DNA from: an uncultured Clostridia bacterium
GTDB taxonomy: Bacteria > Bacillota > Clostridia > TANB77 > CAG-508
Assembly (NCBI GenBank): GCA_948560265.1
Contig: CAOXTD010000002.1
Span: 93,580 to 157,579, forward strand
Direction: 5' to 3'
DNA length: 64,000 nt
Both the position numbers and the translations under genes were made by a program. A model generated the notes under the pieces. The model had not been told where the DNA came from and made no database searches. It saw nothing but the letters and a program-made list of their open reading frames with translations. This document shows positions 9,627 to 33,205 of this stretch, piece by piece. The stretch's first letter is position 1, and each line of letters opens with the position of its first letter.

Positions 9627-9641
9627 GAAGGAGGTAAGAAG

Positions 9642-10139: not shown

Positions 10140-10185
10140 AGAAGTAATTAATTTGAAAAAGAAAATTAGAATGGAAGGAGGAAAT

Positions 10186-11265: not shown

Positions 11266-11268
11266 GAG

Positions 11269-12814: not shown

Positions 12815-14368
12815 ATGATAAATAACAGAGAAAGAGAAGAACTACATAAAGCAATATGGTCAATAGCAGATGATTTAAGAGGTTCAGTAGATGGATGGGA
12901 TTTTAAACAATATATTTTAGGTATAATGTTTTATAGATATATTTCAGAAAATATAACAAATTATATAAATGAGGGAGAAAGAAAAGCAGGAGATATATCT
13001 TTTGATTATGCTAAATTAAAAGATAATGAAGCAGAGACTGAAAGAGATAATCTTGTTAAAGAAAAAGGGTTCTTTATTCTACCATCAGAATTATTTGCAA
13101 ATGTAGTAAAAAGAGCAAGAGATGATGAAAATTTAAACGAAACATTAGAAAAGATATTTAATAATATAGAAAATTCCGCAAAAGGTGCTGAAAGTGAAGA
13201 TGACTTTTCAGGTCTATTTGACGATATAGATGTAAATAGTAATAAGTTAGGAGCTACAGTTACAAAAAGAAATGAGAAACTTGTAAAAATACTAGAAGGA
13301 ATAGCAAGTATCAATTTAGGAAATTATCAAGATAACCAAATCGATGCATTTGGAGATGCTTATGAATTTTTAATGAGTATGTATGCATCGAATGCAGGAA
13401 AATCAGGGGGAGAATTTTATACACCACAAGAAGTTAGTGAACTTTTAACTAAACTTGCTATTGTTGGGAAAACATCAGTAAATAAAGTATATGATCCTGC
13501 TTGTGGTTCAGGTTCATTACTATTAAAGTCTGCAAAGATATTAGGAAAAGAAAATGTTAGAAATGGTTTTTATGGACAAGAGATAAATTTAACTACATAT
13601 AATCTTTGCAGAATAAATATGTTCTTACATGATATTGGATATGATAAATTTAATATTGCATGTGAAGATACATTAGTTTCTCCACAACATTGGGACGATG
13701 AACCTTTTGAAGTAATAGTTTCAAATCCACCATATTCAATTAAGTGGGCGGGAGATGATAATGCAGTTTTAATAAATGACCCGAGATATTCACCAGCAGG
13801 TGTACTAGCTCCAAAATCAAAAGCAGATTTTGCATTCATTATGCATTCTCTTTCATGGTTAGCAACAAATGGTACTGCATCAATAGTATGTTTTCCTGGT
13901 ATTCTTTATAGAGGCGGATCAGAACAAAAAATAAGAAAATACTTAATTGATAATAACTTTGTTGATTGTATTATTCAATTACCTGATAATTTATTCTTTG
14001 GAACAAGTATTGCAACTTGTATAATGGTATTAAAGAAAAGCAAAAAAGATAATAGCACCTTATTTATAGATGCAACAAATGAGTGTGTTAAGGTAACAAA
14101 TAATAATAAATTAACTGATGATAATATAAATAATATTATAGAGATATTTAAAAATAGAGTAGATAAGGAACATATTGCAAAAATAGTATTGAATGAAGAA
14201 ATTGCCAAAAATGATTATAATTTATCAGTTGCAACTTATGTAGAAAAAGAAGATACAAGAGAAAAAATCGATATTATTGAATTAAATAAAGAAATAGATG
14301 AAATCGTTGAGAGAGAAAATAAACTTCGTATTGAAATAGCTAAAATAATTGCAGATATAGAGGTGTAA
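12815..14368 (+). CDS. hsdM: type I restriction-modification system methyltransferase subunit HsdM
   Basis: N6-adenine methyltransferase motif IV VSNPPYS, SAM-binding DPACGSGS and an HsdM N-terminal domain. 517 aa. Confidence 0.9.
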   Translation: MINNREREELHKAIWSIADDLRGSVDGWDFKQYILGIMFYRYISENITNYINEGERKAGDISFDYAKLKDNEAETERDNLVKEKGFFILPSELFANVVKRARDDENLNETLEKIFNNIENSAKGAESEDDFSGLFDDIDVNSNKLGATVTKRNEKLVKILEGIASINLGNYQDNQIDAFGDAYEFLMSMYASNAGKSGGEFYTPQEVSELLTKLAIVGKTSVNKVYDPACGSGSLLLKSAKILGKENVRNGFYGQEINLTTYNLCRINMFLHDIGYDKFNIACEDTLVSPQHWDDEPFEVIVSNPPYSIKWAGDDNAVLINDPRYSPAGVLAPKSKADFAFIMHSLSWLATNGTASIVCFPGILYRGGSEQKIRKYLIDNNFVDCIIQLPDNLFFGTSIATCIMVLKKSKKDNSTLFIDATNECVKVTNNNKLTDDNINNIIEIFKNRVDKEHIAKIVLNEEIAKNDYNLSVATYVEKEDTREKIDIIELNKEIDEIVERENKLRIEIAKIIADIEV

Positions 14369-14369
14369 A

Positions 14370-15617
<1,248 letters not shown>

Positions 15618-15627
15618 GGGGAAGAAA

Positions 15628-18600: not shown

Positions 18601-18759
18601 GAATCAATAATTGAGAAAATAAAGAAATTCTTTGAAAAATATTTTGGAATTTGGAGTTCAAATAATAACGAAGATACTATAGTATATGATATTACAGAAG
18701 ATGATACTGAAAGCTTAGCAATGGTAGCTGAAGAAGGAGAAGAATATAAGCATGAATAA
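15628..18759 (+). CDS. hsdR: type I RM restriction subunit HsdR (SF2 helicase/endonuclease)
   Basis: 1043 aa with Walker A TTGSGKTLT, DEAH-like FDECHRSQ, an N-terminal nuclease domain and an HsdR C-terminal domain. Confidence 0.9.
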   Translation: MSKYNVVIETSNSTVVAEYEPLKRKSDSYQSEAALEKEFIRMLTEQGYDYLEIHEQDALVTNLRKQLELLNDYKFTESEWERFFNNNIANNNDGIVEKTRKIQEDHIQVLKKDDGTSKNIYLLDKKNIHNNRLQVINQYVENNGNYDNRYDVTILVNGIPLVHVELKRRGVALKEAFNQINRYQRDSFWAGSGLYEYIQIFVISNGTNTKYYSNTTRESHIKEQSKTRNKSKKTSNSFEFTSYWADANNKVINDLVDFTRTFLSKHTILNVLTKYCVFTSEELLLVMRPYQIVATERILNKIEVSTNYKKMGTIDAGGYIWHTTGSGKTLTSFKTAQLATNLEYIDKVLFVVDRKDLDYQTMKEYDRFEKGAANGNRSTKVLQKQLEDTTSKIIVTTIQKLSEFVKRNPSHPVFQKHLVLIFDECHRSQFGDMHKMIVKNFKNYHLFGFTGTPIFAKNATNKSNPDFCTTEQAFGDKLHTYTIVDAINDGNVLPFRIDYINTIKKKEGMTDKEVQAINTEEALSSYERVSNVVSYIIEHFDQKTKRNSFYDLKGQRLNGFNSIFAVASIPMAKKYYLELKKQLEEKHKDLTIATIYSFAANEEDTTDGILDDEGFETELLDQSSREFLDFAIDEYNKKFKTNFSSEGNGFQDYYKDLSDRVKKREVDLLIVVNMFLTGFDATTLNTLWVDKNLKQHGLIQAYSRTNRILNSVKSYGNIVCFRDLQEQTNDAIALFGDKDASGIVLLKSYEDYYYGYEDDKGKKQKGYEERIAELLQKYPLGEQIVGEQAQKDFIVSMGNILRLKNILSSFDRFEGNEILSERDFQDYIGTYTDLYEEFKSRKDNGEVESIKDDVVFEMELVKQVEVNIDYILMLVAKYHQSNCTDKEILGSIDKAIKSSLALRSKKELIETFISKINTNTDVMSDWTKFVKEQEEIDLRNLIEEENLNDEETRKFIDNAFRDGQVKTTGTDIEKILPPMRRFGGGNRAERKESIIEKIKKFFEKYFGIWSSNNNEDTIVYDITEDDTESLAMVAEEGEEYKHE

Positions 18760-18935
18760 AGAAGAATTATTGCCGTTTGTAAAATTTATAACAGAAATGG
18801 ATAAGAAAATGGTGGATGAGGATAGACAACATAATTTATCTAAAGAACAAAAAGAGATGATAAAACAATTTTTAGATCAATGTTATGAAAATTTTAAAAA
18901 TAGTAATTAAAGGAAGAATTATAAGATTTAAATAA

Positions 18936-18975
18936 GCAGACTCCAATGAGCCTGCTTTACCTTTATTATTTTTTC
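18936..18975. terminator. bidirectional rho-independent terminator between hsdR and the convergent small gene
   Basis: AAGCAG-actccaatgagc-CTGCTT followed by a T-rich run. Confidence 0.5.
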
Positions 18976-19109
18976 TTATGTGTATGTTTTGGTTGCCTTT
19001 GAGATAAAGCAGAACCAGCTACAGATTTTGTAGTTTTAGAAGTTCTACCATCTTTCAAAAGTTTTGATGCTTTTGAAGCAACACTTGAACTTGTTTTTTT
19101 ACAAGCCAT
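18966..19109 (-). CDS. small basic Lys/Ser/Thr-rich protein (47 aa), unknown function
   Basis: MACKKTSSSVASKASKLLKDGRTSKTTKSVAGSALSQRQPKHTHKKK with an AGGCGGTGA RBS. Below the 60-aa cutoff of the ORF track. Confidence 0.35.
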   Translation of the reverse strand: MACKKTSSSVASKASKLLKDGRTSKTTKSVAGSALSQRQPKHTHKKK

Positions 19110-19244
19110 AAGAATCACCGCCTTTCTGGGATAAAATTTTTCCTCCTTTGATTTTCATTAGAAAACTGATAACAATAAAATAATAGCAAAGCCCAAATAA
19201 AAGTCAACATTTTTGAATAATGAAACGGGACTGTAAAGGTCCCG

Positions 19245-19511
19245 TTATTGTAAATTTTCAGAAATCCAGTCCCATTGTTTTTGATTCAACCAACCTTTTA
19301 TAGGTTTGGTAACTTTGGTGATTATCATAGCATCATTCCCATCGAGATGAGATACGCATTTATCAGAAACTGTTTTTAAATCAGAAGAAGTTGAGATTAG
19401 GAATGTTGTAGTTAGATATTTGCACCATGTTCCAAAAGACTTAATATCATTTTCAACATTCTCCCTATTTTGTGTAGGTGAGTGTAAGTCATAAGATATC
19501 ATATAAATCAT
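19245..19511 (-). CDS. hypothetical 88-aa protein (beta-strand start MISYDL resembles Cas2/ferredoxin-like folds; unassigned)
   Basis: Internal Met of the 165-aa track ORF, with a GGAAGGAG RBS 8 nt upstream. The track ORF's N-terminal 77 aa overlap promoter DNA and are rejected. Confidence 0.45.
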   Translation of the reverse strand: MIYMISYDLHSPTQNRENVENDIKSFGTWCKYLTTTFLISTSSDLKTVSDKCVSHLDGNDAMIITKVTKPIKGWLNQKQWDWISENLQ

Positions 19512-19723
19512 AAGAAATTCTCCTTCCCATTCCAAAGAAGTCAAAAAGTGTTGACTGCTAACAATAGAAAGTGTTATAATACTTCTAATAATACTTTTGC
19601 GAGAAGTTATTAAGAAGCATTTCATGTTGTTTATAACACTTGGAATGCTTTTTATTGTTAAAGAGATTATACAACTTAGAAAATATAAAGTCAATATATT
19701 TTTAAAAAAATGTCCCAAAATTA

Positions 19724-19752
19724 TTGACATTTGTCCCAACAAAAAATATAAT
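19724..19752 (+). promoter_or_regulatory. consensus sigma-A promoter (TTGACA, 17 bp spacer, TATAAT) upstream of the AAA ATPase gene
   Basis: ttgacatttgtcccaacaaaaaatataat. Copies of TGTCCCAA flank the -35 element. Confidence 0.6.
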
Positions 19753-19768
19753 ATAGTAGGGTGATAAA

Positions 19769-20806
19769 ATGAAAAAGAAAAATGTATTAAATTTAATTAA
19801 ATATTATTCAGAAAAAAATGATGAAGCATTCAGAAATGAAGCGTATGAGATAGCTAGAGAATTTGATGAAACTGGAGATTTTCAATTATCTGAATATATA
19901 ATGGCATTACTGTCTAATGTTAATACTTTTGTACCACAAGGTAAAAATTACGATTTATCCTTTTTTATAAAAGTAGAACCAAGTCAATCATCTTTACCAT
20001 TACCAGAAAAGATAAAAGAAGATATTATAGGTATTATAAATGCTGTAGGGCATAATGCTGGAGTAAATAAATTTTTATTTGAAGGGGCTCCAGGTACAGG
20101 TAAAACTGAAACTGTAAAACAATTGGCACGCATATTAGAAAGAGATTTGTTTTCAGTAGAATTTGATACTGTAATAGATAGCAAATTAGGACAGACATCT
20201 AAAAATATTTCAGAACTATTTAAAGAAATACAAAATTTATCACATCCAGAAAAAATAATTATTTTATTTGATGAAATAGATTCAATTGCATTAGATAGAA
20301 TTAATAAAAATGATCTTAGAGAAATGGGAAGAGCAACTTCTGCAATTTTGAAAGGATTAGATACACTAAATGAAAATATTGTTTTTATAGCCACAACAAA
20401 TTTATATGAATCATTTGATAAAGCATTAGTTAGAAGATTTGACTCTGTAATTAATTTTAATAGATATGAAAAAGAAGATTTAATAGAAATATCGGAATAT
20501 TTATTAAATGAAGCATTAGATAAATTTAAATTTGCAGGACGAAATGTTAAATTATTTAGAAAAATAATGAATATGATGGAAGACATACCTTATCCAGGAG
20601 AATTAAAGAATATTATAAGAAGCTCAATAGCATTTAGCAATCCTAATGATGAATATGATTATTTGAAGAGATTATTTACATTGGTGAATAAAAATAGTAA
20701 TGGTAATCTGAAAGAATTACAAGACATAGGATTAACTGTTAGAGAAATTGAAATATTAACAGGAATTTCTAAAAGTCAAGTTTCAAGGGAAATAAAGGGT
20801 GAGTAA
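19769..20806 (+). CDS. AAA+ ATPase (IetA-like partner of an S8 peptidase)
   Basis: Walker A GAPGTGKTE, Walker B ILFDEID, sensor FIATTN and arginine finger RRFD. Overlaps the downstream S8 gene by 8 nt. Confidence 0.75.
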   Translation: MKKKNVLNLIKYYSEKNDEAFRNEAYEIAREFDETGDFQLSEYIMALLSNVNTFVPQGKNYDLSFFIKVEPSQSSLPLPEKIKEDIIGIINAVGHNAGVNKFLFEGAPGTGKTETVKQLARILERDLFSVEFDTVIDSKLGQTSKNISELFKEIQNLSHPEKIIILFDEIDSIALDRINKNDLREMGRATSAILKGLDTLNENIVFIATTNLYESFDKALVRRFDSVINFNRYEKEDLIEISEYLLNEALDKFKFAGRNVKLFRKIMNMMEDIPYPGELKNIIRSSIAFSNPNDEYDYLKRLFTLVNKNSNGNLKELQDIGLTVREIEILTGISKSQVSREIKGE

Positions 20807-23027
20807 AATGAATGAATTATTACAATTAAAAGGAAAATTTTTTCAAAAGTCAAATAATTCTAAGCCAGGACCATCAAATCTTCCTAAGGGGGAATATGTT
20901 AAAATTGATCACTTAAAAAACTTAGAAAAACAGTTATTAGATTTGCGAGAATTTTGGAATGATGAAAAATATCTAAATGGGGCATTGATAAGTGTATTTT
21001 ATAAAGATGTTGTAGCAAAAAGTAGAAGAGTTAAAGGATTTCTTTCAAAGGGAGTTAAAACAGCCAATAGTTCAATAGTTGGTGCAAAATTTACAGATGG
21101 AGATAAAAGAAAACATATTATAACACATTATATAACAAAGGAAGTATTAGAAGAAACAATTAATAGAATAAGTGAGTCGATAAAAATTATATCTGAAAAA
21201 TTTGGCAATGAAATTAATTATTATAATATAGAGCAAATAAACAAAAAGAATATTAATATAGAAAAATATGATATTGGCAGAAATAATTTTGTTAATATTG
21301 TAGTTGATTCATTTTATGTTGAAAAATTTTCAATTTTAGAGGAGAAAGATGATATAAATCAAAATTCACTTATTACAATATATAAGACAGATATTGATAC
21401 CAAAGAATTGTTAGAAAAAATAGGAATAAATATATTCTCATCAAGAATATTAGACGAAACGACTATATTTTTAACACCAGATCAATTAAAAATATTAAAA
21501 AATAATGCACCATATTTAATAGCAATGAAAGTGAGTGATTTATCTAATTATAATTATGAAGATTTTTTTGCAGTAGAAGATTTGAAACCAATCTCAATCC
21601 CAGAGCCAACTAATGAACCTATAATAGGAGTAATAGATACATTATTTGATAAAAGAGTTTATTTTTCAGATTGGGTAGAGTTTGTTGATAAAACAGATGT
21701 TAATATACCTATAGAAAATAAGGACTATGAACATGGAACGGAAGTAACATCAATTATAGTAGATGGACCACAAATTAATCCAGAAATGGATGATGGATGT
21801 GGGAGATTTAGAGTTAAACATTTTGGAGTAGCTAGAGCAACTCAAATGAGTTCATTTTCAATTTTGAAAGCAATAGAAGAAATTATTTCAAAAAATAAAG
21901 ATATACATGTTTGGAATTTATCTTTAGGATCTTCATTAGAAGTAAATTCTAACTTTATATCTCCAGAAGCTGCTTATTTGGATAAGATACAATATGAAAA
22001 TAATGTGATATTTGTTATTGCAGGAACAAATAAAACAAGAGAAGATATAGAGAGAATAGGTGCACCTGCAGACTCAATAAATTCTTTAGTTGTTAATTCA
22101 GTTAATATGAGAGGTGAACCAGCTACATATGCAAGAAAAGGTATAGTTTTATCTTTTTTTAACAAACCTGATATTAGCTACTATGGTGGAGATGAAGACA
22201 AATATATGAGAGTATGTGGACCGACTGGTGAAGGTAGGGTTACAGGAACATCATTTGCAGCACCTTGGATTGCTAGAAAGATGGCATATTTGATTGAGAT
22301 ATTAGGATTTCCTAGAGAAGTTGCAAAAGCATTACTTATAGATTCTGCAACTGGATGGAATGAGCAAAATTCAAATGAATTATCATGTTTAATCGGTTAT
22401 GGAATTGTACCTAAAAGAATTGAGGACATATTAAAGACATCTAATGATGAAATAAAATTTATTTTATCTGGCGAATCAGAAAAATATGATACATATAATT
22501 ACAATATTCCTGTACCAATATATGGAGATAAACATCCATTTATTGCTAAAGCTACAATGTGCTATTTTCCTAACTGTTCTAGAAATCAAGGGGTAGATTA
22601 CACTAATACAGAATTAGACATATATTTTGGGAGAATAGGAGAAAAAGGAATACAGTCTATAAATGAAAATACGCAATCAATAGAAGGAGAACATTACTTG
22701 AGAGAAGAAAATGCAAGAAAGTATTATAGAAAATGGGATAATGTAAAACATATTAGACAAGTATATAAAGAAGGAATAAGACCTAAAAAAGCTTATGGAA
22801 ACGGTATATGGGGAATTAGTATAAAAACTAAAGAAAGATTAGAAAAAAGAGATGGAGAAGGCATTAAATTTGGAGTTGTTGTAACTCTTAAAGAAATAAA
22901 TGGAGTAAATAGAATAGATGAATTTATCAATCTGTGTTCACTGAGAGGATGGCTAGTGAATAAGGTAAATGTAGAAAATCAAATCGATATATATAATAAA
23001 GCAGAAGAAGATATTGAATTTGAATAA
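20799..23027 (+). CDS. S8 family subtilisin-like serine peptidase (IetS-like), 742 aa with long N- and C-terminal extensions
   Basis: Catalytic triad in order Asp (VIDTLFD), His (HGTEVTSII), Ser (GTSFAAPWIA); Asn-containing segment AGTN. Confidence 0.75.
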   Translation: MSKMNELLQLKGKFFQKSNNSKPGPSNLPKGEYVKIDHLKNLEKQLLDLREFWNDEKYLNGALISVFYKDVVAKSRRVKGFLSKGVKTANSSIVGAKFTDGDKRKHIITHYITKEVLEETINRISESIKIISEKFGNEINYYNIEQINKKNINIEKYDIGRNNFVNIVVDSFYVEKFSILEEKDDINQNSLITIYKTDIDTKELLEKIGINIFSSRILDETTIFLTPDQLKILKNNAPYLIAMKVSDLSNYNYEDFFAVEDLKPISIPEPTNEPIIGVIDTLFDKRVYFSDWVEFVDKTDVNIPIENKDYEHGTEVTSIIVDGPQINPEMDDGCGRFRVKHFGVARATQMSSFSILKAIEEIISKNKDIHVWNLSLGSSLEVNSNFISPEAAYLDKIQYENNVIFVIAGTNKTREDIERIGAPADSINSLVVNSVNMRGEPATYARKGIVLSFFNKPDISYYGGDEDKYMRVCGPTGEGRVTGTSFAAPWIARKMAYLIEILGFPREVAKALLIDSATGWNEQNSNELSCLIGYGIVPKRIEDILKTSNDEIKFILSGESEKYDTYNYNIPVPIYGDKHPFIAKATMCYFPNCSRNQGVDYTNTELDIYFGRIGEKGIQSINENTQSIEGEHYLREENARKYYRKWDNVKHIRQVYKEGIRPKKAYGNGIWGISIKTKERLEKRDGEGIKFGVVVTLKEINGVNRIDEFINLCSLRGWLVNKVNVENQIDIYNKAEEDIEFE

Positions 23028-23054
23028 TACTAAAATTTGTGATAGGAGAAGAGA

Positions 23055-23624
23055 ATGAACAAAATAGATAATGTAGAATTTTATAAAGATTTATATTTGT
23101 TTGAAATTGCTAGAAAAGAAAATTTAAATTCTAAAATATCAACTTATATAGGACTTTTAACAGTGCTTGGAGGAATTGTTGTCTTTGAATTAGAGAATTT
23201 GTATCAAAATTTAAATGTTAATCCTATAATACAATTTGAACTTATAGTATTGATAATGATAATTTTAGGAATTAATATATATAACTTATATAAGGCTAAT
23301 CATGGTAAAGAATATAAATATTTAGATAATTCTATAGAAGTAAAAAAAGCATTTGTTGAATTGGAAAGATATTATCAGCAATATTATGAATATTTTAAAA
23401 ATGGAGAAGAAACAATAGATTCTTTAATAGAAAGAAAAAAGAAAGAAAAGCTAATAGAAATGTATATTCAATGTAGTGAAGAAAATGCTAGAGTAAATGA
23501 TATTAGGAATGAAGAAACTATGAGATTTATAAATTTTTTTATAATTTCTCTAATTATAGTAGGTATTATAGGAATATATTGTATAACTGTAAAGAAGCCT
23601 ATAGATATTAATATTTTATACTAG
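23055..23624 (+). CDS. membrane protein (2-3 TM helices), unknown function
   Basis: Hydrophobic segments LLTVLGGIVVF, LIVLIMIILGI and FIISLIIVGIIGIYCI. Confidence 0.5.
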   Translation: MNKIDNVEFYKDLYLFEIARKENLNSKISTYIGLLTVLGGIVVFELENLYQNLNVNPIIQFELIVLIMIILGINIYNLYKANHGKEYKYLDNSIEVKKAFVELERYYQQYYEYFKNGEETIDSLIERKKKEKLIEMYIQCSEENARVNDIRNEETMRFINFFIISLIIVGIIGIYCITVKKPIDINILY

Positions 23625-23838
23625 GAGGTGAATTATTATGTCAGATAGTGATACAAAAAAAGAAGTGGATAAAGTTACTCCACCACCAGAACCACAATTA
23701 CCAACTAAGACTTTATGCGAGAGTTTTTCAAAGAAAAACTCTAAAAATACAGAGAAAAGATAGTTAAAAATATAGATATTATTAAATGTAATTGAATAGT
23801 ATAAAATTTAACTAATAAATACAAAATAATTATAATAT

Positions 23839-23880
23839 TAAAGTGCAATTTTTACACTTAAAGTGCAAAAATTGCACTTT
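23839..23880. promoter_or_regulatory. tandem palindromic operator-like sites (AAGTGCA-N5-TGCACTT, twice) overlapping the promoter of the fic gene
   Basis: aaagtgcaatttttacactt followed by aaagtgcaaaaattgcacttt, immediately downstream of a TATAAT at 23831. Confidence 0.55.
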
Positions 23881-23936
23881 AAATATTGATATTATATCTT
23901 ACAACTGATATAATATATATGTAGGAGGTATTTCTA

Positions 23937-25007
23937 ATGGATAAGAAAAAAGATTGGAATTTAGAATTATCAGAATATATTAAACAGGGTGAGCCAAATC
24001 GAGTAGAAAAGACCAAAACATGGGAAACAGCAATAGGTTTGCAAGATGTAGATGGATTAAAACCTTCAAAATACTTAATAAAAACTGCAAAAGAACACAT
24101 TGAAGGAACAATAGATATCGAAGAAGTAAAAACAAGAATAGATGAATACTATGAAGTTCAAGGCAGTAGAAAAAACTTTGAAAAAGAAAACGAAGAAGCT
24201 GATAAAGTTGCAGTAAGAATAACAGAAATATTAAGTGAAAAAGCATTTAATTTTTCACCAACAGAACTATTAAATATTCATAAAAGATTATTCAAAAATA
24301 TATTTGATGGAGCAGGAGTATATAGAGATTATAATTTTACTAAAAAAGAATGGGTATTAAATGGAGATACAGTAATATATGCACCATTTGATACAATAAA
24401 AGAAACATTAGAATACGATTTTGAACAAGAGAAAACCTTTTCATATAAAGGATTAAGCTTAGATGAATCTATAAAACATCTATGTAAATTCACATCAAAT
24501 ATATGGCAAGTACATCCATTTTGCGAAGGAAATACAAGAACAACAGCAGTATTTATAATTAAGTATTTAAGAACTTTTGGATTTAATATTAATGATGAAG
24601 TATTTGCTGAAAACTCATGGTATTTTAGAAATTCATTAGTAAGAGCAAATTACAAAAATTTTGAAAAAAATGTATTTGAAGATACATCATTTTTGGAAAA
24701 GTTCTTTTATAACTTGCTAACAAATGCTAACAATGAATTAAAAAATAGATATACACATATAGATAATATTCAAAGTGCAAATGAAAATAATTTAAAGGGT
24801 AATAATTACACTTTAGAAGAACAGGCAATTATAAACATATTAGAAAATAATCCAGCAACTACTCAAGAAGAAATAGCAAAGCAAATTAATAAATCTTTGA
24901 GAACCATTAAAACATATATGGCAGAAATGCAAGATAAAGGACTGATAGAAAGAAAAAATGGAAAAAAGAATGGTGAATGGATAGTGAAAGGTATAACATT
25001 TAAGTAA
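23937..25007 (+). CDS. Fic/DOC family protein with degenerate active-site motif and C-terminal winged-HTH
   Basis: HPFCEGNTRTTAV versus canonical HxFx(D/E)GNGRxxR. The C-terminal wHTH is LEEQAIINILENNPATTQEEIAKQINKSLRTIKTYMAEMQDKGLI. Confidence 0.7.
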   Translation: MDKKKDWNLELSEYIKQGEPNRVEKTKTWETAIGLQDVDGLKPSKYLIKTAKEHIEGTIDIEEVKTRIDEYYEVQGSRKNFEKENEEADKVAVRITEILSEKAFNFSPTELLNIHKRLFKNIFDGAGVYRDYNFTKKEWVLNGDTVIYAPFDTIKETLEYDFEQEKTFSYKGLSLDESIKHLCKFTSNIWQVHPFCEGNTRTTAVFIIKYLRTFGFNINDEVFAENSWYFRNSLVRANYKNFEKNVFEDTSFLEKFFYNLLTNANNELKNRYTHIDNIQSANENNLKGNNYTLEEQAIINILENNPATTQEEIAKQINKSLRTIKTYMAEMQDKGLIERKNGKKNGEWIVKGITFK

Positions 25008-25052
25008 ATATAATAAATACTAAAAATAGATTCAGTAGAAGGAGAAAATCAA

Positions 25053-26477
25053 ATGGAAAAGAAAGTCGAACATCCAAGAGTATTTATATCTTACTCATGG
25101 TCAAGTAAAGAATATGAAGAAAAAGTCATGGATTTAGCAGTGAAATTACAAGGAGATGGAATTGAAGTTATTATTGACAAATGGATTATGCAACCTGGTA
25201 ATGATACAATAAATTTTATGGAGAAGTGTGTTAAAGATCCTGAAGTTAATTTTGTTTTGATGTTATTAGATAAAAAATATACTGAAAAAGCAGATAGCAG
25301 AAGTGGAGGAGTAGGAATAGAAACTCAAATTATTTCAAATGAAGTATATAATAATGTTGAACAAAGTAAATTTATACCTATTGTTTTTGATAGAGATGAT
25401 GAAGGAAAAATATATGTACCAATTTATCTAAAGAGTAAATTTCACTATGATTTAACACAAGATAATTCTGATGAAGAATATGTAAAGTTAGTAAAACAAA
25501 TATATGGAAGACAAATATATTATAAACCAGAGCTAGGAAATAAACCTAGTTGGGTTGATGAAAGTTTAAATAGTCCGAGTGCTTTAAAATTAAAAATATT
25601 ACAAAATAAGAATAATAAGAGTAGCTTCAATTCTTTGGAAGAAGAGATAAAAAAATCATCTTTAGGTGAAGATGAAACTGAGATTATAGAAAAAGCAGAA
25701 AAAAATAGAGTAATTATAGAAAAATACAATAATTCGATAGAATATAGGAATGCATTAATAGAGATATTTTTTAATAAATATACAGAAGATAATTTTATTG
25801 ATGAAACTTGTGATTTTTATGAGAATATTAAAAACTGGAATAAGCAAAATAGTGGTATAAAACAAGAAATATGGGATGCTTTTATCCATGAAACCTTTAT
25901 ATATTTAATAGCAGTTTTATTAAAAATGAAACAATATAGAACAATAAATATATTTATTACTAAAAGCTATTTTCAACAAGGATATGAGGATAACATTACA
26001 AGTTCTAATAAGTATTTTTATAGTCATAATTATGATATTATCCAAGAATCAAAATGTGAGTTAGATGATAAAAAATATTATAGTGGAATGGCACAAATAT
26101 GGATAGAAAATATTTATGAACCTAAAATAACGAAACAAGAGTTTACCCAGGCAGATGTATTAATTTACAATTTAAATATATTATTATTAAATAAAGAAGA
26201 TTGGTATTGGTTTCCAATTACTTATGTATATAATGGAAATTTTGGATTTAATAGTTCTTTAAAAGATTTTAGCATAAGACTAAAATCTAAATATGAAGTG
26301 AATAAGATGAAAGAATTATTTGGAGTTAACACAATAGAAGAATTAAAAAAATTATTTGATGCAATGAAACCATTTATAGAAAATAGACAAGAAAGGTATA
26401 GATATATAACAGCTTTTGAATATGCAGATTTAATTACAGATTATGTAAAAGTAAATGAAATTGGTATGTTAAATTAA
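25053..26477 (+). CDS. TIR-like (DUF1863/SEFIR-type) N-terminal domain protein with ~340-aa uncharacterised C-terminal region
   Basis: N-terminus RVFISYSWSSKEYEEKVMDLAVKLQGDGIEVIIDKW matches the FISYS TIR-like signature. 45-nt gap after fic, with a GAAGGAG RBS. Confidence 0.55.
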   Translation: MEKKVEHPRVFISYSWSSKEYEEKVMDLAVKLQGDGIEVIIDKWIMQPGNDTINFMEKCVKDPEVNFVLMLLDKKYTEKADSRSGGVGIETQIISNEVYNNVEQSKFIPIVFDRDDEGKIYVPIYLKSKFHYDLTQDNSDEEYVKLVKQIYGRQIYYKPELGNKPSWVDESLNSPSALKLKILQNKNNKSSFNSLEEEIKKSSLGEDETEIIEKAEKNRVIIEKYNNSIEYRNALIEIFFNKYTEDNFIDETCDFYENIKNWNKQNSGIKQEIWDAFIHETFIYLIAVLLKMKQYRTINIFITKSYFQQGYEDNITSSNKYFYSHNYDIIQESKCELDDKKYYSGMAQIWIENIYEPKITKQEFTQADVLIYNLNILLLNKEDWYWFPITYVYNGNFGFNSSLKDFSIRLKSKYEVNKMKELFGVNTIEELKKLFDAMKPFIENRQERYRYITAFEYADLITDYVKVNEIGMLN

Positions 26478-26489
26478 AAAAATATATAA

Positions 26490-26520
26490 ATAAAGTCCGA
26501 ATTATTCGGACTTTATTTAT
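26490..26520. terminator. bidirectional terminator
   Basis: AAAGTCCGAAT/ATTCGGACTTT perfect hairpin flanked by A/T runs. Confidence 0.6.
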
Positions 26521-26522
26521 TG

Positions 26523-26819
26523 CTATTCCTCAAAACATCCCATAACTAACTGAGAACCATCCACAAATCCATTTCTATAATACTTTTCAGTAATATAAGT
26601 CAAATACCTCATAAAATCATCATAAAGAAGATCAAGTTGTTTCTCTACATAAGTTCTATTCTGTTTAGGAATATTCTTCAAAATATTCTCCTTAAAAAAA
26701 TCAAATTTAAATTCATTTTCTCTATCTTGTTTATCTGCATAACACAAACAAGTTTCTTCTCTAAAATCAAACCATTCTTTCAAAATATCATTTTCATTAA
26801 CATTTCTAAAATTAACCAT
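26523..26819 (-). CDS. hypothetical protein co-located with TnpV (TnpW-like position)
   Basis: 98 aa, directly downstream of the TnpV-like gene on the minus strand. Confidence 0.4.
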   Translation of the reverse strand: MVNFRNVNENDILKEWFDFREETCLCYADKQDRENEFKFDFFKENILKNIPKQNRTYVEKQLDLLYDDFMRYLTYITEKYYRNGFVDGSQLVMGCFEE

Positions 26820-26831
26820 ATCTAATTCCTC

Positions 26832-27185
26832 CTACATATATAAAATCTCATTAAAAACAATTTCCTCAGCTCTATTTTTAATATTATTCATAGCCTGAAC
26901 CCATTCCATTTGATGATGCTCTTTTAAATTTTCATCAATATGTTCAAGTTCAGCAAATTGTTTTATAAGTTGATTTACTTTGTCAGTAGTACTTTTATCT
27001 ATCTCAATTAAATGTTGCTTTAAAGTACCGCTTATAAGCAATTCAGTATATAGACCTTTCTTAAAATCTTTTAAATAGTTTAATCTTAACCTTCCATATT
27101 TACCAATACTTCCTTTAGGTTGCTTAGGTAAATATAAGTCAGGAATTAAATAATCTCCTTCTCTGTGATAAATAATTTCATTCAT
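26832..27185 (-). CDS. TnpV-like transposon-encoded protein
   Basis: MNEIIYHREGDYLIPDLYLPKQP resembles the TnpV N-terminus (xYxxVGDYLLPDLxLP). GGAGG RBS before the ATG at 27185; the longer track ORF start is rejected. Confidence 0.6.
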   Translation of the reverse strand: MNEIIYHREGDYLIPDLYLPKQPKGSIGKYGRLRLNYLKDFKKGLYTELLISGTLKQHLIEIDKSTTDKVNQLIKQFAELEHIDENLKEHHQMEWVQAMNNIKNRAEEIVFNEILYM

Positions 27186-27414
27186 TTTCAAAACCTCCAA
27201 ATTATAAAAAATTAAAATGTCCCCAATTTGCAAATGCTATTTTGAATCTATTGTGATACAAGGCTTTTCAGACCTTGGGGACACAATGGGGACAAAAGCA
27301 CCAAAAAATGTCCTAAAAACGCACAAAAGTTCTATAAATTAAAATAGCTACAAACGTTGATATTTAGATAAAAACTTAACTTTTCATTAAATTACAAAAA
27401 ATGCTGCTTAAATC

Positions 27415-27430
27415 CTCATAACCCGAAGGT
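27415..27430 (+). repeat. 16-bp core direct repeat CTCATAACCCGAAGGT (right copy); its right flank is a degenerate tRNA T-arm-like sequence
   Basis: Perfect match to 6588-6603. The surrounding ~45 bp is an imperfect copy of the tRNA-Met 3' region (tttaagttgaaattc vs cgtaagttcgagtc). Confidence 0.7.
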
Positions 27431-27616
27431 TTTAAGTTGAAATTCAACTAATACCCTTAAAAATCAGGAAAATCTAAAAAATATTACAATATTCATTTTT
27501 AATATTTTCCCCATCACTACAATATTTCTACAAACAGTATTTATTTCTCTAGGTAAGAATGATATAATAGTAGAAATCGATTTTATGCAACAAAAAACAA
27601 AGGAAAAAAGAAGTAA

Positions 27617-30316
27617 ATGGATATACATAAATATTTAATAAGGATAAAAGAGGAAGATAAAACGGAAGAAGTTTCCAACTATAGTGTAGACAATGAATAT
27701 GCACATATTAACTTTAAGAATAGTGAAATATCATATACGTATTTAAAGAAAGACATCCAAATCTATAAAAATCCAATAGAAATAGATACTCAGAAATATA
27801 AATTAATGATTAGTCATGGCTATGTATATAATGTTATCAAAGTAATTAAATTTGATTTATATTATAGGATCTTTTTCCAAGATGGCACCTCAATTGTAAT
27901 CCAGGAAGATGAGTTGCAACTAATAGAAAACAATAATACGCAAGCATTATCTATGAATAAATTTGACTATTACAAAGAAATATCCGATATAGTTAGTGTG
28001 AAAACAGAAGAAGGAAACTCAATACTTACTAATGAATATAAAAAGATTAATTTTATATCCAAAAATACAGCCTTATATAAATATTTAAATCCAAAATTCT
28101 CAAATCATAAAATAGGTTTCAATTTCAATAATACTATTTTCCCATTTGGAGCAAATAAATCGCAGTTTAAAGCAGTAAAATGTGCTATGGCTAGTCAAAT
28201 TAGTATTATAGAAGGGCCACCTGGCACAGGAAAAACGCAAACAATATTAAATATCATAGCTAATATTATTAGAAATGGTCAAACAGTAGCGGTAGTATCT
28301 AATAACAATGCTGCAACAGAGAATGTCTATGAAAAATTACAAAAATATCATTTAGATTATTTATGCGCGAAATTAGGCAAAAGAGATAATAAAGAAGAGT
28401 TTATTCAAAATCAAACAGGTCAATATCCTAAATTTTCAGGGGAATTAGCAAATGAAGAGCTAATACAAAATCAGATTATAACTCTAAATCGAGATATGAA
28501 TAGTATATTTGAAATTCAGAATAAGATAGCTAAAATGAGAGAGGAATTAAGTGAAATTAAAACACAACATGAATATTTTAATAAACAACAAAGAGAAGAT
28601 GAAATAATTGTGCCAAAAATTAGAGACGTTAATAAAATTGCTTCAGATGATATTATGAAATTAAAAGTAGAGATTGAAGAAATATCAAAAGTAAATCTTT
28701 GGTTCAAAATAAAGTCGCAATTCTTATATGGAATAGGAAATAGAAAATTTTACAAAAGGACGAAACAAGATGTTATTCAAAGCTATAATAAGTTATTTCT
28801 TATGATAAAAGAAATGGAATTAGAACAAGAAATAAAAAGCAATGAACGAAAATTAAAATCATTAGGAAATAATAGATTAGATTTATTAACAGAAAATTCC
28901 ATGAAATTATTAAATGAACATTTGAGAAAAAAATATGGTCAAAGAACAGAAAGGAAAATATATAAAGCATCAGATTTATATAATGCATCAACAAACTTTA
29001 ATTCTGAGTATCCAATTGTGTTTAGTACAACCTATTCCATTAAAAAATGTTTAAATGAAAATTACAAATTTGATTATATTATTATGGATGAAGCATCACA
29101 AGTGGATCTAATTACAGGAGTTTTAGCTTTATCAGTTGCAAAAAATGCAGTAATAGTAGGAGATTTGAAACAATTACCAAATGTTATTACAACAGAAAAT
29201 AAAAAACTAATAGAAGAGATTTCAAAGAAATATCAAATAGAAAGTAAATATGATTATTTACAACATAGTTTTTTATCATCAGTAAGTCAAACTGTAACTG
29301 ATGCACCAAGAACGCTACTACAAGAACATTATAGATGCCATCCAAAAATCATACAATTTTGCAACAAAAAATTTTATGATGATAAACTCGTTATTATGAC
29401 AGAAGATCAAGGAGAAAAAGATGTGCTTAAAGCATATATAACAACAAAAGGCAATCATGCAAGAGATCATGTTAATTATAGGCAAATTGATGTCATAGAA
29501 AAAGAAATTATGTCAGAGCTCACAAAAGAAATTGATATCAATGATATAGGAGTGATCTCCCCATACAGAGATCAGAAAAAGGAGTTAGATAAGAAATTCA
29601 ATTCCAAATTGAAAATTGATACGATTCATAAATTTCAGGGGAGAGAAGAAGAAGCAATTATCATAACAACTGTAGATAATGAAATAGGGAAATTTGTTGA
29701 CGACCCTAAAATGTTAAATGTTGCAGTAACGAGAGCGAAAAGATATTTACGACTAGTGGTATCAGATAATGAAAAAAATCAAGGAACGAATATAGATGAC
29801 TTATTAAAATATATACAATATAATAATTTTGAGATAGTGAAAAGTAAAACAAAATCTATTTATGATTTACTATATAAAGAAAATAGACAAAAACGTATGG
29901 AGTATTTAAAAAACAAAAAAAGAGTTTCAGATTATGATTCTGAAAATTTAACCTATCATCTAATAGAGAACATTCTAAAAGAAAATGGATACAACAACTT
30001 AGATGTAGCTGTTCATGTTCCTTTGATAGATATTATAGAGACAGATGAGCTTTTAAATGAAGAAGAAAAGAAATTTGTTAGTAATAAATGGACTCATATT
30101 GATTTTGCTATTTTTAATAAAATGGATAAAAGACTAGTTATTGCAGTAGAAGTAGATGGATATTATTTTCATAAAGAAGGAACAAAACAGCAAGAAAGAG
30201 ACAATATTAAAGGAAGGATTTTGAAAAAATATGAAATTCCACTAGTGAGACTTAACACTACTGGAAGTGAAGAAAAGAAAATACTAGAAGAAAAGATTAA
30301 GGAAATTTTCACTTAA
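27617..30316 (+). CDS. SF1 (Upf1/DNA2-like) helicase fused to a C-terminal DUF559/Vsr-like restriction-endonuclease-fold domain
   Basis: Walker A GPPGTGKTQ, motif II IIMDEASQ, VGDLKQLPNV and motif VI NVAVTRAKRY. The C-terminus THIDFAIFNKMDKRLVIAVEVDGYYFHK is a DUF559-like PD-(D/E)xK. Confidence 0.7.
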   Translation: MDIHKYLIRIKEEDKTEEVSNYSVDNEYAHINFKNSEISYTYLKKDIQIYKNPIEIDTQKYKLMISHGYVYNVIKVIKFDLYYRIFFQDGTSIVIQEDELQLIENNNTQALSMNKFDYYKEISDIVSVKTEEGNSILTNEYKKINFISKNTALYKYLNPKFSNHKIGFNFNNTIFPFGANKSQFKAVKCAMASQISIIEGPPGTGKTQTILNIIANIIRNGQTVAVVSNNNAATENVYEKLQKYHLDYLCAKLGKRDNKEEFIQNQTGQYPKFSGELANEELIQNQIITLNRDMNSIFEIQNKIAKMREELSEIKTQHEYFNKQQREDEIIVPKIRDVNKIASDDIMKLKVEIEEISKVNLWFKIKSQFLYGIGNRKFYKRTKQDVIQSYNKLFLMIKEMELEQEIKSNERKLKSLGNNRLDLLTENSMKLLNEHLRKKYGQRTERKIYKASDLYNASTNFNSEYPIVFSTTYSIKKCLNENYKFDYIIMDEASQVDLITGVLALSVAKNAVIVGDLKQLPNVITTENKKLIEEISKKYQIESKYDYLQHSFLSSVSQTVTDAPRTLLQEHYRCHPKIIQFCNKKFYDDKLVIMTEDQGEKDVLKAYITTKGNHARDHVNYRQIDVIEKEIMSELTKEIDINDIGVISPYRDQKKELDKKFNSKLKIDTIHKFQGREEEAIIITTVDNEIGKFVDDPKMLNVAVTRAKRYLRLVVSDNEKNQGTNIDDLLKYIQYNNFEIVKSKTKSIYDLLYKENRQKRMEYLKNKKRVSDYDSENLTYHLIENILKENGYNNLDVAVHVPLIDIIETDELLNEEEKKFVSNKWTHIDFAIFNKMDKRLVIAVEVDGYYFHKEGTKQQERDNIKGRILKKYEIPLVRLNTTGSEEKKILEEKIKEIFT

Positions 30317-30349
30317 AATTAAATTAAAATAATATAAGGAGATAATATT

Positions 30350-30703
30350 ATGAAAAATATATTAATAGAATACCCAAAATGTTCGACATGTCAAAAAGCA
30401 AAAAAGTGGTTAGAAGCCAATAATATTGCATTTGTAGATAGAAACATTATAACAGAAACGCCATCTATAGAGGAGCTAACAGAATGGATAGAGAAAAGTG
30501 GACAAGAAATAAGAAAGTGGTTTAATACCAGCGGACTAAAATATAAAGAATTAAACTTAAAAGAAAAACTGCCAACTATGTCTGACAAGGAAAAAATAGA
30601 ATTACTAGCAAGTGATGGAATGCTCATAAAAAGGCCAATATTCATATCAAATAAAGGAATAGTAAACGGCTTTCAAGAAGCAAAATGGAAGGAAACAATA
30701 TAA
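30350..30703 (+). CDS. ArsC/Spx family protein (CxxC thiol-disulfide redox fold)
   Basis: MKNILIEYPKCSTCQKAKKWLEANNIAFVDRNI...GMLIKRPIFI is Spx/YffB-like. 117 aa. Confidence 0.7.
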   Translation: MKNILIEYPKCSTCQKAKKWLEANNIAFVDRNIITETPSIEELTEWIEKSGQEIRKWFNTSGLKYKELNLKEKLPTMSDKEKIELLASDGMLIKRPIFISNKGIVNGFQEAKWKETI

Positions 30704-31293
30704 TGCAACAAGAAACAGAAGAATTGACTCACCTTTATAATCAATGCCTAACAGAACTTGCTTCCATAGGAATTGACATAAACAATAAAGAAATAATTGG
30801 GACAATTGATATTAAGCTAGCAAAAAGAGCAAGCAAAAGATATGGTTGTTGCAAACAGGAAAATCCAGATGAAAAATATAAAATCATACAAAAAAGAGGA
30901 TATCATAAAATAATCAAATACGAAAAATTTCAGAGCCATCATATTGAAATTAGCAATTGGGTTATGAAGTTAAACAATGATATCATTAAAAATACAATTA
31001 TGCATGAACTAATACATTGCATTCCTTTTTGCAATAACCATGGAAAAGAGTTCAAGAAATATGCTAAATATATTAATCAAAAATTAGGATATCATATTAC
31101 TACCAAAGGAAATATAGAGGAAGATTATAAAGCAAGCCAACTAGAATATGTGGAACAAAATGACTACAAATATAAGATTCAATGCCAAAATTGTGGTCAA
31201 GTTATTTATCGAAAAAGATTGAATCCTAGTTTGATAAAAAGATATCGTTGTGGAAAATGTAAAGGAAAGCTAAAATTAATAGAAGAAAAATAG
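30703..31293 (+). CDS. SprT-like zinc metalloprotease domain protein with C-terminal zinc ribbon
   Basis: HELIHC (HExxH) plus CQNCG...CGKCKG. The start overlaps the upstream stop (TAATG). Confidence 0.65.
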   Translation: MQQETEELTHLYNQCLTELASIGIDINNKEIIGTIDIKLAKRASKRYGCCKQENPDEKYKIIQKRGYHKIIKYEKFQSHHIEISNWVMKLNNDIIKNTIMHELIHCIPFCNNHGKEFKKYAKYINQKLGYHITTKGNIEEDYKASQLEYVEQNDYKYKIQCQNCGQVIYRKRLNPSLIKRYRCGKCKGKLKLIEEK

Positions 31294-31330: not shown

Positions 31331-31666
31331 AAAAATCTTGATAAGAATAAGTTTTGGATAAAATTTAATTAGGGAACTTATTTTATCTATTAACATAATT
31401 ATATCACTAAAGTAAGGTCGAAATTTGTAGAAATTGGTCAACAGACTACAAAAAGATAAAAAACATGATAAATACTATAACGAACACTAAAAAAATGTCA
31501 AAAAAAGTAGAAAATTGACGAAAATAAGTAAATGAACAAACTAGGTGAAACAAAATTTACAAAAGTGCTTGCAAAAGCAAATACAATTCGTTACAATAAT
31601 ATTATTATTTCAATTGATTTATTTCAAAAAATTATTTCAAAAAACAATCCAAAGGAGAAATTTAAA

Positions 31667-33205
31667 ATGTTATCTATTACAAAATCTATGACCTTGCATG
31701 GACTACAAGGCTTTTTAATTGACGTGCAAGTAGATGTTTCAGCAGGAATGCCAGCATGGGATGTTGTAGGACTCCCCGATACCAGCGTAAGAGAAGCTAA
31801 GGAAAGAGTTAGGACAGCTATTAAAAATTCAGGATATGAATTATTTAGTAGAAAAATTGTAGTTAACTTAGCACCAGCAGATATCAAAAAAGAAGGCTCT
31901 ACTTTTGATTTGCCAATTGCAGTTGGGATATTAATGAGTTTAGAAATTATCTATGGCAAAGGAAATCAAGACACTTTATTAATAGGAGAACTATCTTTAA
32001 ATGGAAACCTTAATCCAATTGAAGGCGCATTACCAATTTGTATTGAAGCTAAAAAGTTAGGAATTAAGAAAGTAATTTTACCACAAGCGAATGCAAAAGA
32101 AGCGTCTATCATAGAAGGGATAGAAATATTAGGAGCCTATGACTTAACAGAAGTAGTAAATTATTTTAATGGAGATAGTAAAATACAAAGTTATCATACA
32201 GACTGGAAAGAATGTACAAAAAATAGGCAACAAGAGTCATTAGACTTTGCAGATGTCAAAGGACAAGAAAATGTTAAAAGAGCAGTAGAGGTTGCTGCTG
32301 CAGGAGGGCATAATTGTTTACTTATTCGGAAGCCCAGGTTCCCGGAAAAACAATGATAGCTAAAAGAATTCCATCCATATTACCAGATTTGAGTTTTGAA
32401 GAAGCCTTAGAAATTACTAAAATTCATAGTATAGCAGGAATTTTAAAATCAGAAATTCCAATCATTACAACTAGACCATTTCGTTCACCTCATCATACTA
32501 TTTCAGCCACCTCGTTAATAGGAGGTGGAAGAATTCCAAAACCAGGAGAAATTAGTTTATCACATTATGGTGTTTTATTCTTAGACGAACTCCCAGAATT
32601 TAATCAACATACTTTAGAAGTCCTGCGAGGACCATTAGAAGATGGAACAGTCACAATTAGTAGAGTAAATGCTAGCTTTACATATCCTTGTGAGTTTATG
32701 TTTGTTGCATCCATGAATCCATGTCCTTGTGGATATTATGGTTCACCAGATAAAGAATGTTCTTGCAACCCGCAAACAATCAGTAAATATATGGGAAAGA
32801 TAAGTCGGACCTTTATTAGATAGAATTGATATTCAAATAGAAGTAAGCCCCGTCAAATATGAAAAATTAGGCAAAGAAGAAAAGACAGAAACCTCACAAG
32901 AAATTAAGAAAAAGGTGAATCAAGCAAGAGAGATTCAGAGGAAGAGATATAAGGAAGAAGCAATTTTCTCTAATGCAGCTTTAACTCCAAAACTAATAGA
33001 GAAATATTGTAAATTAGATGAAGAAAGCAAGAAAATACTAGAAATAGCCTTTGAAAAATTAGGACTTAGTGCTAGAGCTTATGGACGTATTTTAAAAGTA
33101 GCAAGGACTATTGCAGATTTAGTTGGTTCAGAGCAAATACAAAAAAATCACATAGCAGAAGCTATACAATATAGAAGTTTAGATAAAAAATATAGGAGGA
33201 ATTAG
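31667..33205 (+). pseudogene. comM: comM/yifB (Mg-chelatase-like AAA+ competence protein) disrupted by three +1 frameshifts
   Basis: Three ORFs (31667-32356, 32314-32823, 32915-33205) together encode a YifB/ComM-like protein. The Walker A region reads LLI|R...PGKTMIAK instead of LLIGSPGSGKT. Single extra C before GGA at ~32328, ~32343 and ~32806. Confidence 0.75.

Follow-up and report, generated by a model that had tools for sequence, protein, structure and literature searches.

The DNA analyzed here, referred to as the window, is a stretch of 64,000 nucleotides from an uncultured Clostridia bacterium (contig CAOXTD010000002.1, positions 93,580 to 157,579), which carries on its forward strand, at 27617..30316, a gene for a single-chain helicase-nuclease. 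The gene has an ATG start and an intact open reading frame (ORF) encoding 899 aa, as judged from the ORF list and the translation. To its left lies an integrative mobilizable island with defense cargo (6588..27438), whose right att repeat ends 178 bp before the start of the gene, while to its right follow a small gene of the ArsC/Spx family and then genes of the sprT, comM, dprA, and yraN type. An initial annotation of this DNA had regarded the protein as a possible defense factor situated at the edge of the island. Here, we describe the protein, its surroundings in the same and in other species, and the function that these features suggest.

Architecture of the helicase-nuclease

From the N- to the C-terminus the protein consists of a small beta domain, a linker, a helicase motor, and a nuclease, all encoded on the forward strand. 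In an AlphaFold2 model, the first 105 residues (27617..27931) fold into a tandem pair of five-stranded beta units, each about 50 aa long, and the secondary structure of that model places a helical linker (aa 106-178; 27932..28150) between the beta domain and the motor. The motor is an Upf1-like helicase core of superfamily 1B (SF1B; aa 179-735, 28151..29821), as indicated by Pfam, a profile search of the Protein Data Bank (PDB), Foldseek, and invariant motifs, and it contains the Walker A motif at 28214-28237 and motif II (DEASQ) at 29087-29101. A long helical insertion of about 165 residues interrupts the first RecA domain, RecA1 (aa 280-445; 28454..28951), with helices predicted by AlphaFold2 at residues 280-324, 343-355, 361-370, 383-416, and 420-440. 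The C-terminal module is a PD-(D/E)xK nuclease domain of the Vsr-like family DUF2726 (Pfam PF10881; aa 774-896, 29936..30304).

The initial annotation had described an SF1 helicase of 899 aa with a complete set of motifs at 27617-30316, and both the ORF and the motifs were found as it described them, namely GPPGTGKT at aa 200-207, DEASQ at 491-495, QLPNV (motif III) at 519-523, and VTRAKR (motif VI) at 704-709. The residues of these motifs are invariant or nearly so among 40 homologues of 54-87% identity. In Pfam, AAA_11 matches aa 179-525 (E 5e-25, 89 bits against a cut-off of 27 bits) and AAA_12 matches aa 554-715 (E 5e-29, 102 bits against 27 bits). The nearest solved structures in the PDB profile search are IGHMBP2, Dna2, Sen1/SETX, and Upf1 (E 1e-29 to 1e-21), and Foldseek returns the same set (E about 1e-16, probability 1.00) at an identity of only 12-17%. 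With both Pfam domains above the gathering score, motifs I, II, III, and VI in place, and these relatives in fold, the protein is a member of the Upf1-like SF1B helicases.

The nuclease module matches DUF2726 with E 1e-17 and 64.4 bits against a gathering score of 24.7, spanning profile positions 7-125 of 126. The initial annotation had called it a DUF559/Vsr-type nuclease and had proposed to look for DUF4011, AAA_11/12, and DUF559 in Pfam; AAA_11 and AAA_12 are present, but DUF4011 and DUF559 have no Pfam match in the 899-aa protein even at E<=1. Since the classification of PD-(D/E)xK nucleases groups DUF2726 with Vsr and DUF559 (PMC3424549), "Vsr-type" is correct at the level of the superfamily, whereas the family label DUF559 is wrong. 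A weak match to MTES_1575 at the C-terminus (21 bits, under the cut-off of 38 bits) is seen in many homologues as well. Residues D829, E845, D847, H852, and K865 are invariant in the 40 homologues and, from the PD-(D/E)xK pattern, are the candidate catalytic residues of the nuclease.

Residues 1-178 have no Pfam match, in agreement with the uncharacterized N-terminus of the initial annotation. The AlphaFold2 model of the protein, built from 40 homologues, has a mean predicted local distance difference test (pLDDT) score of 77.5 and shows the beta units, the linker, two RecA domains, and a closing alpha/beta nuclease domain in this order. The beta units reach a pLDDT of about 90 both in this model and in a second model of residues 1-178 alone, in which the linker (aa 106-178) is of low confidence. 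Compared with the PDB by Foldseek, the beta domain has no significant match, the best one (E 0.04) being a faint likeness to tandem Agenet/SH3/KOW domains. A search with residues 1-178 against 1.84 billion representative proteins gave 327 matches (cluster representatives), and nearly all of the best 150 of these 327 are N-termini of proteins of about 900 aa or fragments, so that the domain is a family-specific one. The possibility that it is a shuffled module found on other effectors was rejected, as the same best 150 matches give no support for it. Evolution is fastest in the beta domain and the helical insert, whose mean pairwise identity among 37 full-length homologues is 43 and 44%, respectively, against 70-75% for the RecA domains and 62% for the nuclease.

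The exchangeable cassette and the neighboring island

The surroundings of the gene were compared with those in sister lineages that were reached via DprA orthologues. In four loci with a DprA of 86% identity (L109-L112), sprT, comM, dprA, and yraN are kept and the helicase is absent. By blastn, two of these loci (L109 and L111) match the window at about 90% identity in two segments, 26512-27442, where the att core lies together with TnpV and a small ORF, and 30742-34488, while in all four the intervening 3.3 kb (27443-30741) is replaced by unrelated genes at sharp junctions. The slot of L109 and L110 holds a gene encoding a 1728-aa fusion of an AEP-TOTE primase and a reverse transcriptase with a weak PRTase-CE tail (L109:1234-6420); the same gene, also with the PRTase-CE tail, is frameshifted into three ORFs in L111 (L111:1044-6240), and L112 has a gene for a 748-aa protein without a Pfam match. 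In four further loci with a closer DprA (89%; L113-L116) an orthologue of the helicase gene is present at 86% nucleotide identity and is followed directly by sprT, without an arsC gene; on its 5' side, across a gap of 118 nt, lie genes for an SLFN-g3/ResIII helicase and for GIY-YIG, MazG-like, and ApeA-HEPN proteins.

The replaced segment of the window, 27443..30741 on the forward strand, as delimited by blastn against L109 and L111, thus consists of the conserved region upstream of the gene, the helicase-nuclease gene, the arsC-like gene, and the first bases of sprT. The arsC-like gene (30350..30703, forward strand, 117 aa; Pfam ArsC, E 1.5e-17) is part of it, and the right junction lies inside the start of sprT. 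Because this segment is replaced in a sister lineage, the helicase, together with arsC in the species of the window, is an exchangeable cassette, and the conserved chromosome begins at about 30742, at sprT. The position "just outside the island boundary" given by the initial annotation is literally true but misleading, as a second variable cassette carries the gene as its cargo. A right-hand att bound of the cassette was considered and rejected: no copy of the att core with up to 3 mismatches was found downstream of the gene.

Within the species the picture is different. The identical 899-aa protein is encoded on 23 contigs from gut metagenomes and metagenome-assembled genomes, and in all 10 contigs shown the order downstream is the same, with the arsC-like gene, the sprT-like gene, a broken comM, dprA, and yraN. 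The cargo upstream varies among the contigs and consists of the island of the window with type I restriction-modification (R-M) and TIR genes, of MBL-fold and DUF4143 genes, of DUF87, or of RNase_T, AAA_15, and Mrr-nSTAND3 genes. Homology between strains sets in precisely at the att core, which all contigs of the species have at a distance of about 200 bp upstream of the gene. As the gene and the region downstream are constant while the upstream cargo varies, the helicase gene looks, within the species, like the constant right border of a hotspot. Of the 10 contigs shown with the identical ArsC-like protein, all of which have the helicase gene, one carries it split into ORFs of 149 and 709 aa (L018:244-2921). 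The G+C content of the gene in the window is 26.3%, compared with 24-31% for the genes of the island and 30-35% for the genes from comM onward. In a scan for promoters and terminators, promoter-like sites occurred at chance level and no terminators were found.

The island to the left is bounded by two copies of CTCATAACCCGAAGGT, at 6588-6603 and 27415-27430, where 0.11 copies would be expected and two were reached in 1 of 100 shuffles; the extended repeat matches at 22 of 24 positions (6588-6611 versus 27415-27438). The left repeat lies inside a truncated tRNA-fMet with anticodon CAT that lacks the 5' acceptor arm (6569..6635, forward strand; aligned to positions 10-63 of the 71 in the Rfam tRNA model at 22.3 bits, E 0.017), and the right repeat (27415..27438, forward strand) is a decayed remnant of the 3' part of a tRNA-fMet. 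An intact tRNA at the att site was rejected, since only the truncated tRNA-fMet is present; neither ARAGORN nor Rfam at the gathering score detects an intact tRNA in the window, nor is there one in 14 related loci. The att repeat beside the gene, which the initial annotation had assumed, is real. Two tyrosine integrases, encoded at 4908..6425 on the forward and at 6809..8011 on the reverse strand, face the truncated tRNA-fMet between them, as if two integrative elements had come to lie in tandem.

The right-hand element (6588-27438) encodes an integrase, a DUF6076 protein, a replisome organizer, a DnaC/IstB-like ATPase, and a MobA/VirD2 relaxase. Its cargo (locus L003) comprises a type I R-M system, an overlapping pair of genes for an AAA ATPase (19769..20806) and an S8 peptidase (20799..23027), a Fic/HTH protein (23937..25007), a SEFIR/TIR protein of 474 aa (25053..26477), and TnpV. 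The combination of relaxase and replication genes with a cargo of type I R-M, Fic, and SEFIR/TIR genes characterizes the element as a mobilizable defense island, and the integrase, the relaxase, and this cargo bear out the island that the initial annotation had taken for granted.

Several features of the region to the right were observed in addition. The competence gene comM, which is Mg-chelatase-like, is broken into three ORFs in every strain of the species (31532..32356, 32314..32823, and 32915..33205 in the window), whereas the breaks in sister lineages are at different positions; dprA next to it is intact. In the intergenic region between comM and dprA there is a direct repeat of 22 nt (20 of 22 positions matching), with copies 35 nt apart at 33206-33227 and 33241-33262. 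A second variable site lies behind yraN at about 34495-34642, where the window has a gene of the PALP family and L109-L116 have a complete type I CRISPR-Cas operon (Cas6, CXXC_CXXC, DevR, Cas5d, Cas3, Cas4, Cas1, and Cas2), which in one sister lineage is preceded by HicB and two unknown genes.

Distribution among species and probable function

In a scan of one genome per species, at least 588 genomes carry a relative of the gene, distributed patchily across many phyla. The best 80 of these relatives, to which the locus counts below refer, are full-length or nearly so and have 40-71% identity. Among the matches listed are Clostridia, Helicobacter/Campylobacter, Bacteroides, Fusobacterium, Treponema, Paenibacillus, Halobacillus, Desulfitobacterium, and Pectinatus (including Bacilli and Negativicutes), and the best GTDB representative among them is Clostridium sp. 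26_21 with 71% identity. Full-length copies were also found on plasmid or megaplasmid records of Bacteroides, Parabacteroides, Arthrobacter, and Caballeronia. A phage origin was rejected, as there is no full-length copy among 50,697 phage records.

No recurrent partner gene accompanies the helicase. The two nearest genes on each side of the 80 loci (about 280 proteins) belong to 142 Pfam families upstream and 132 downstream, and none of the 80 loci has a sprT, comM, dprA, yraN, or PALP gene nearby. An integrase lies within 10 kb in 7 of the 80 loci, a relaxase in 1, and a replication initiator in none. The commonest neighbor families, in raw counts, include ResIII, DUF3427, PLDc_2, RE_NgoFVII, AAA_21, AAA_15, nSTAND3, Mrr_cat, and GmrSD_N. 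Searched with PADLOC models from the 2023 database version, the neighbors include type IV, I, and III restriction enzymes, PbeA, JetC/JetD (Wadjet), BrxA/BrxB (BREX), AriA (PARIS), AbiLi, AbiO, and PDC candidates. A 70%-identical homologue is located between SEC-C or Fic genes and TnpV with a type I R-M system, with neighbors that vary among strains and with the same tRNA-fMet core 3.1 kb upstream, and a 62%-identical homologue adjoins AIPR and type I R-M genes. In two other species the 16-nt tRNA-fMet core precedes the homologue by 2.5-3.1 kb (L019:3893-3908 and L106:2881-2896), and elements targeting tRNA-fMet may often carry members of the family along or have them settle at their side. In Clostridium sp. 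26_21 a gene for a 661-aa SLFN-g3 (DUF2075-type) helicase with a weak AbiO match is situated directly upstream of the homologue (L026:7905-9887), and a similar SLFN-g3/ResIII helicase also precedes the orthologue in the sister lineage L113.

A more distant relative occurs in Escherichia coli. It (WP_000256231.1) has 893 aa and the domain order AAA_11-AAA_12-DUF2726, with 33% identity over residues 150-884 and a different N-terminus, and is present in 648 of 5426 complete genomes (12%). On the chromosome of E. coli AR_0069 (L119:9001-11682; also L117) it lies in an island rich in insertion sequences beside ibrA/ibrB-like (PAPS-reductase/IbrB-like) genes, and is annotated only as an "AAA domain-containing protein."

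The gene is accessory in the manner of anti-phage defense genes in general, being distributed patchily and either present or absent at a hotspot. The context favors the defensive role that the initial annotation had proposed, given that none of the 80 loci shares the sprT/comM/dprA context and that a sister lineage holds other conflict genes in the slot; a uniform core gene in a housekeeping context, the finding by which that proposal was to be judged false, was looked for, and the same 80 loci and the replacement in the sister lineage speak for the opposite. We therefore consider the gene to encode a stand-alone helicase-nuclease that most likely (with a probability of roughly 0.6, as judged from sequence and context) acts against phages or plasmids and is carried as an exchangeable cassette in a tRNA-fMet-linked defense hotspot. 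More tentatively, at odds that fall a little short of even, the protein may be the first of a widespread and as yet unnamed family of single-protein defense systems of about 900 aa, composed of an N-terminal tandem beta-barrel, an Upf1-like SF1B motor with a long helical insert, and DUF2726, and found in at least 588 species, with the fast-evolving N-terminal domain as a new type of sensor of a phage or plasmid trigger.

The motor of such a protein would load on single-stranded DNA (less likely on RNA or R-loops) in replication or recombination intermediates of the invader and would probably translocate in the 5'->3' direction with ATP, by analogy with Dna2, IGHMBP2, Sen1, and Upf1. Translocation would bring the C-terminal Vsr-like endonuclease to the nucleic acid, which would then be cleaved. 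The N-terminal beta domain and the helical insert probably serve in recognition of the trigger or substrate or in autoinhibition, as in Hna, DdmD, and DruE, the helicase-nucleases with which specificity and autoinhibition were compared. By comparison with Hna, Nhi, and Hachiman, a phage SSB would be an obvious choice for the trigger. As there is no conserved partner gene, sensing and killing would be combined in one polypeptide, and the outcome would be either direct clearance of the invader or abortive infection.

Several observations weigh against a role in defense. No curated defense model matches the protein over its full length, the matches in PADLOC and NCBIfam being those of the helicase core and far under the cut-offs. 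Many of the neighbors in other species are ordinary (NUDIX, GNAT, MerR), the counts of defense neighbors are raw counts, and the neighbor census was built on naive greedy ORF calls. Frameshifted copies occur in some lineages, and throughout a whole clade the gene is divided between two overlapping ORFs of 219 and 689 aa (L106:5367-8070, proteins P0073-P0111), from which it follows that the gene is dispensable, although its function is not thereby indicated. Proteins of 674-689 aa that lack the N-terminus were considered as a natural "short form," which was rejected, as they stem from this same gene split by a frameshift into the two ORFs. In which direction the motor moves, what it acts on, and what the N-terminal domain does are matters of inference. 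Finally, the gene is fixed in its species, being present in 10 of 10 contigs shown with an identical ArsC neighbor, and the arsC-like gene starts within 33 bp of it and is followed by sprT, with no terminator-like site between them.

These last points favor instead a housekeeping helicase-nuclease for DNA repair, recombination, or competence, similar to Dna2 and acting with sprT, comM, dprA, and yraN, as the gene lies directly upstream of these DNA-metabolism genes and Dna2 is among the closest solved relatives of the protein. Yet the genes in question accompany the helicase in 0 of 80 loci in other species, a sister lineage keeps sprT-comM-dprA with unrelated genes in place of the helicase, and comM is a broken pseudogene in every strain; with its patchy distribution across phyla, its absence from many close relatives, and its island-like G+C content, a housekeeping role is very unlikely. 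That the gene serves a mobile element, either as a helicase for replication, transfer, or maintenance of an integrative element or plasmid or as a weapon between elements, is suggested by the tRNA-fMet att remnants beside it in three different species, by the recurrence of TnpV, Fic, and type I R-M nearby, and by the plasmid and megaplasmid copies and the integrases within 10 kb in 7 of 80 loci. We hold this to be unlikely, since the gene is not consistently linked with integrases (7 of 80 loci), relaxases (1), or replication initiators (0) and has no recurrent neighbor, and since it stays while the elements to its left change. A fused endonuclease is not known from replication or transfer helicases, and a weapon used by one element against another would in practice hardly differ from defense.

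Two other explanations concern the substrate and the present state of the gene. Like Upf1, Sen1, and IGHMBP2, and as proposed for Mokosh, the motor could track RNA, following phage transcripts or R-loops, so that the nuclease would cut at RNA-DNA hybrids; in PADLOC the helicase regions of MkoA and MkoC match best, and three RNA helicases, IGHMBP2, SETX/Sen1, and Upf1, are among the closest solved structures. The sequence holds nothing that separates RNA tracking from DNA tracking, but the DNA enzyme Dna2 belongs to the same clade and Vsr, DUF559, and DUF2726 are DNA endonuclease folds, which makes an action on RNA unlikely. The gene might also be a decaying relic of an old island without current function, considering that it is cargo of an old cassette with a degenerate left att and that frameshifted copies exist (149+709 aa in L018, 219+689 aa in the whole clade). 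The intact ORF, the identical protein on 23 contigs, and helicase and nuclease motifs that are all invariant among homologues of 54-87% identity make this very improbable. Should the role indeed be defensive, the gene would add to the known set a helicase-nuclease family of compact size and common occurrence in the gut, with a motor of the Mokosh/Hhe type, a different nuclease, and a sensor-like N-terminal domain without a known structural relative; otherwise it would be an ordinary accessory helicase. The relative in E. coli makes the defense hypothesis cheap to test.

Comparison with named systems

Defense by a single helicase-nuclease protein is already known as a kind, and the protein described here belongs to no named system of this kind. 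Nor was a functional study of DUF2726/PF10881 in connection with helicases or defense found in the literature. Mokosh combines a COG1112 helicase with a PLD nuclease, which in type II are both part of one protein (Millman et al. preprint), and the initial annotation had likened the gene to type II. It resembles MkoC, the type II protein, in that one gene encodes both a COG1112/Upf1-like helicase and, behind it, a nuclease at the C-terminus. The best PADLOC matches are indeed MkoA (E 4.5e-48) and MkoC (E 9e-46), but they are limited to the helicase region, that of MkoC covering profile positions 639-943 of 1136, and the nuclease is of the PD-(D/E)xK family DUF2726 and not of the PLD family, for which the protein has no Pfam match. 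With a match of the helicase only and a nuclease of a different fold, the protein is not a Mokosh protein, and this part of the initial annotation is not supported.

In Hhe (PADLOC PDLC02194, NCBIfam NF042953), a DUF4011 anti-phage helicase with a Vsr-type endonuclease, a motor of the same AAA_11/AAA_12 clade and a C-terminal Vsr-like fold are likewise united in a single polypeptide. Unlike Hhe, whose models have 1800-1900 positions, the protein of the window has no DUF4011, is half the length, and has an N-terminal beta domain of its own. Only the helicase core aligns with the Hhe models (E 1e-20, 97.7 bits against a cut-off of 2000 bits; the best PADLOC stretch is 78 residues), and no alignment of the nuclease part is reported, although the fold group is common to both (DUF2726; MTES_1575 below the cut-off at 21 bits). 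Membership in Hhe was therefore rejected for lack of DUF4011 and for the low score, and the two proteins are best seen as distantly related architectures. ProA, PLuB, and PDC-S37 were rejected on similar grounds, as they match the helicase core only and far under the cut-offs (ProA 159 versus 1500 bits). The homologues from E. coli, Bacteroides, and the sister lineages show the same motor-only matches below the cut-offs to the models of Hhe, ProA, and PDC-S37.

Hna is a single-protein helicase-nuclease with an SF2 motor that mediates abortive infection, its autoinhibition being released by a phage factor (PMC13381803). It resembles the protein described here in being a stand-alone effector in which the helicase comes first and a PD-(D/E)xK nuclease is C-terminal, and it provides a model for a trigger-released autoinhibition. 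The motors are different, however, being SF1B Upf1-like in the window and SF2 in Hna, and no sequence relationship was detected. Dna2 likewise combines an Upf1-like motor with a PD-(D/E)xK nuclease. In Dna2, however, the nuclease precedes the motor in the chain and is of another PD-(D/E)xK family. The eukaryotic proteins IGHMBP2, Dna2, Sen1/SETX, and Upf1 are housekeeping enzymes. Nhi has an N-terminal nuclease and an SF1 helicase of a different family. It is a plausible functional analogue, as a single multifunctional nuclease-helicase that degrades phage replication intermediates (PMC11084316), and no Nhi model is among the PADLOC matches.

With respect to its position, the gene is comparable to the right flank of cDHS1 in Pseudomonas aeruginosa, which is described as a core DUF4011 helicase gene at the edge of a hotspot with many defense systems (PMC10250203). 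Both are Upf1-like helicase genes that are constant within a species at the edge of a hotspot, but the DUF4011 protein is a different and much larger one from another phylum. The flank gene of the window is replaceable in sister lineages, while for cDHS1 such a replacement is not reported in the portion of that paper on which this comparison rests. Seen within one species, a gene may thus resemble a conserved hotspot border and yet be exchangeable cargo across sister lineages, which bears on the definition of such borders, that formed by the DUF4011 gene of cDHS1 included.

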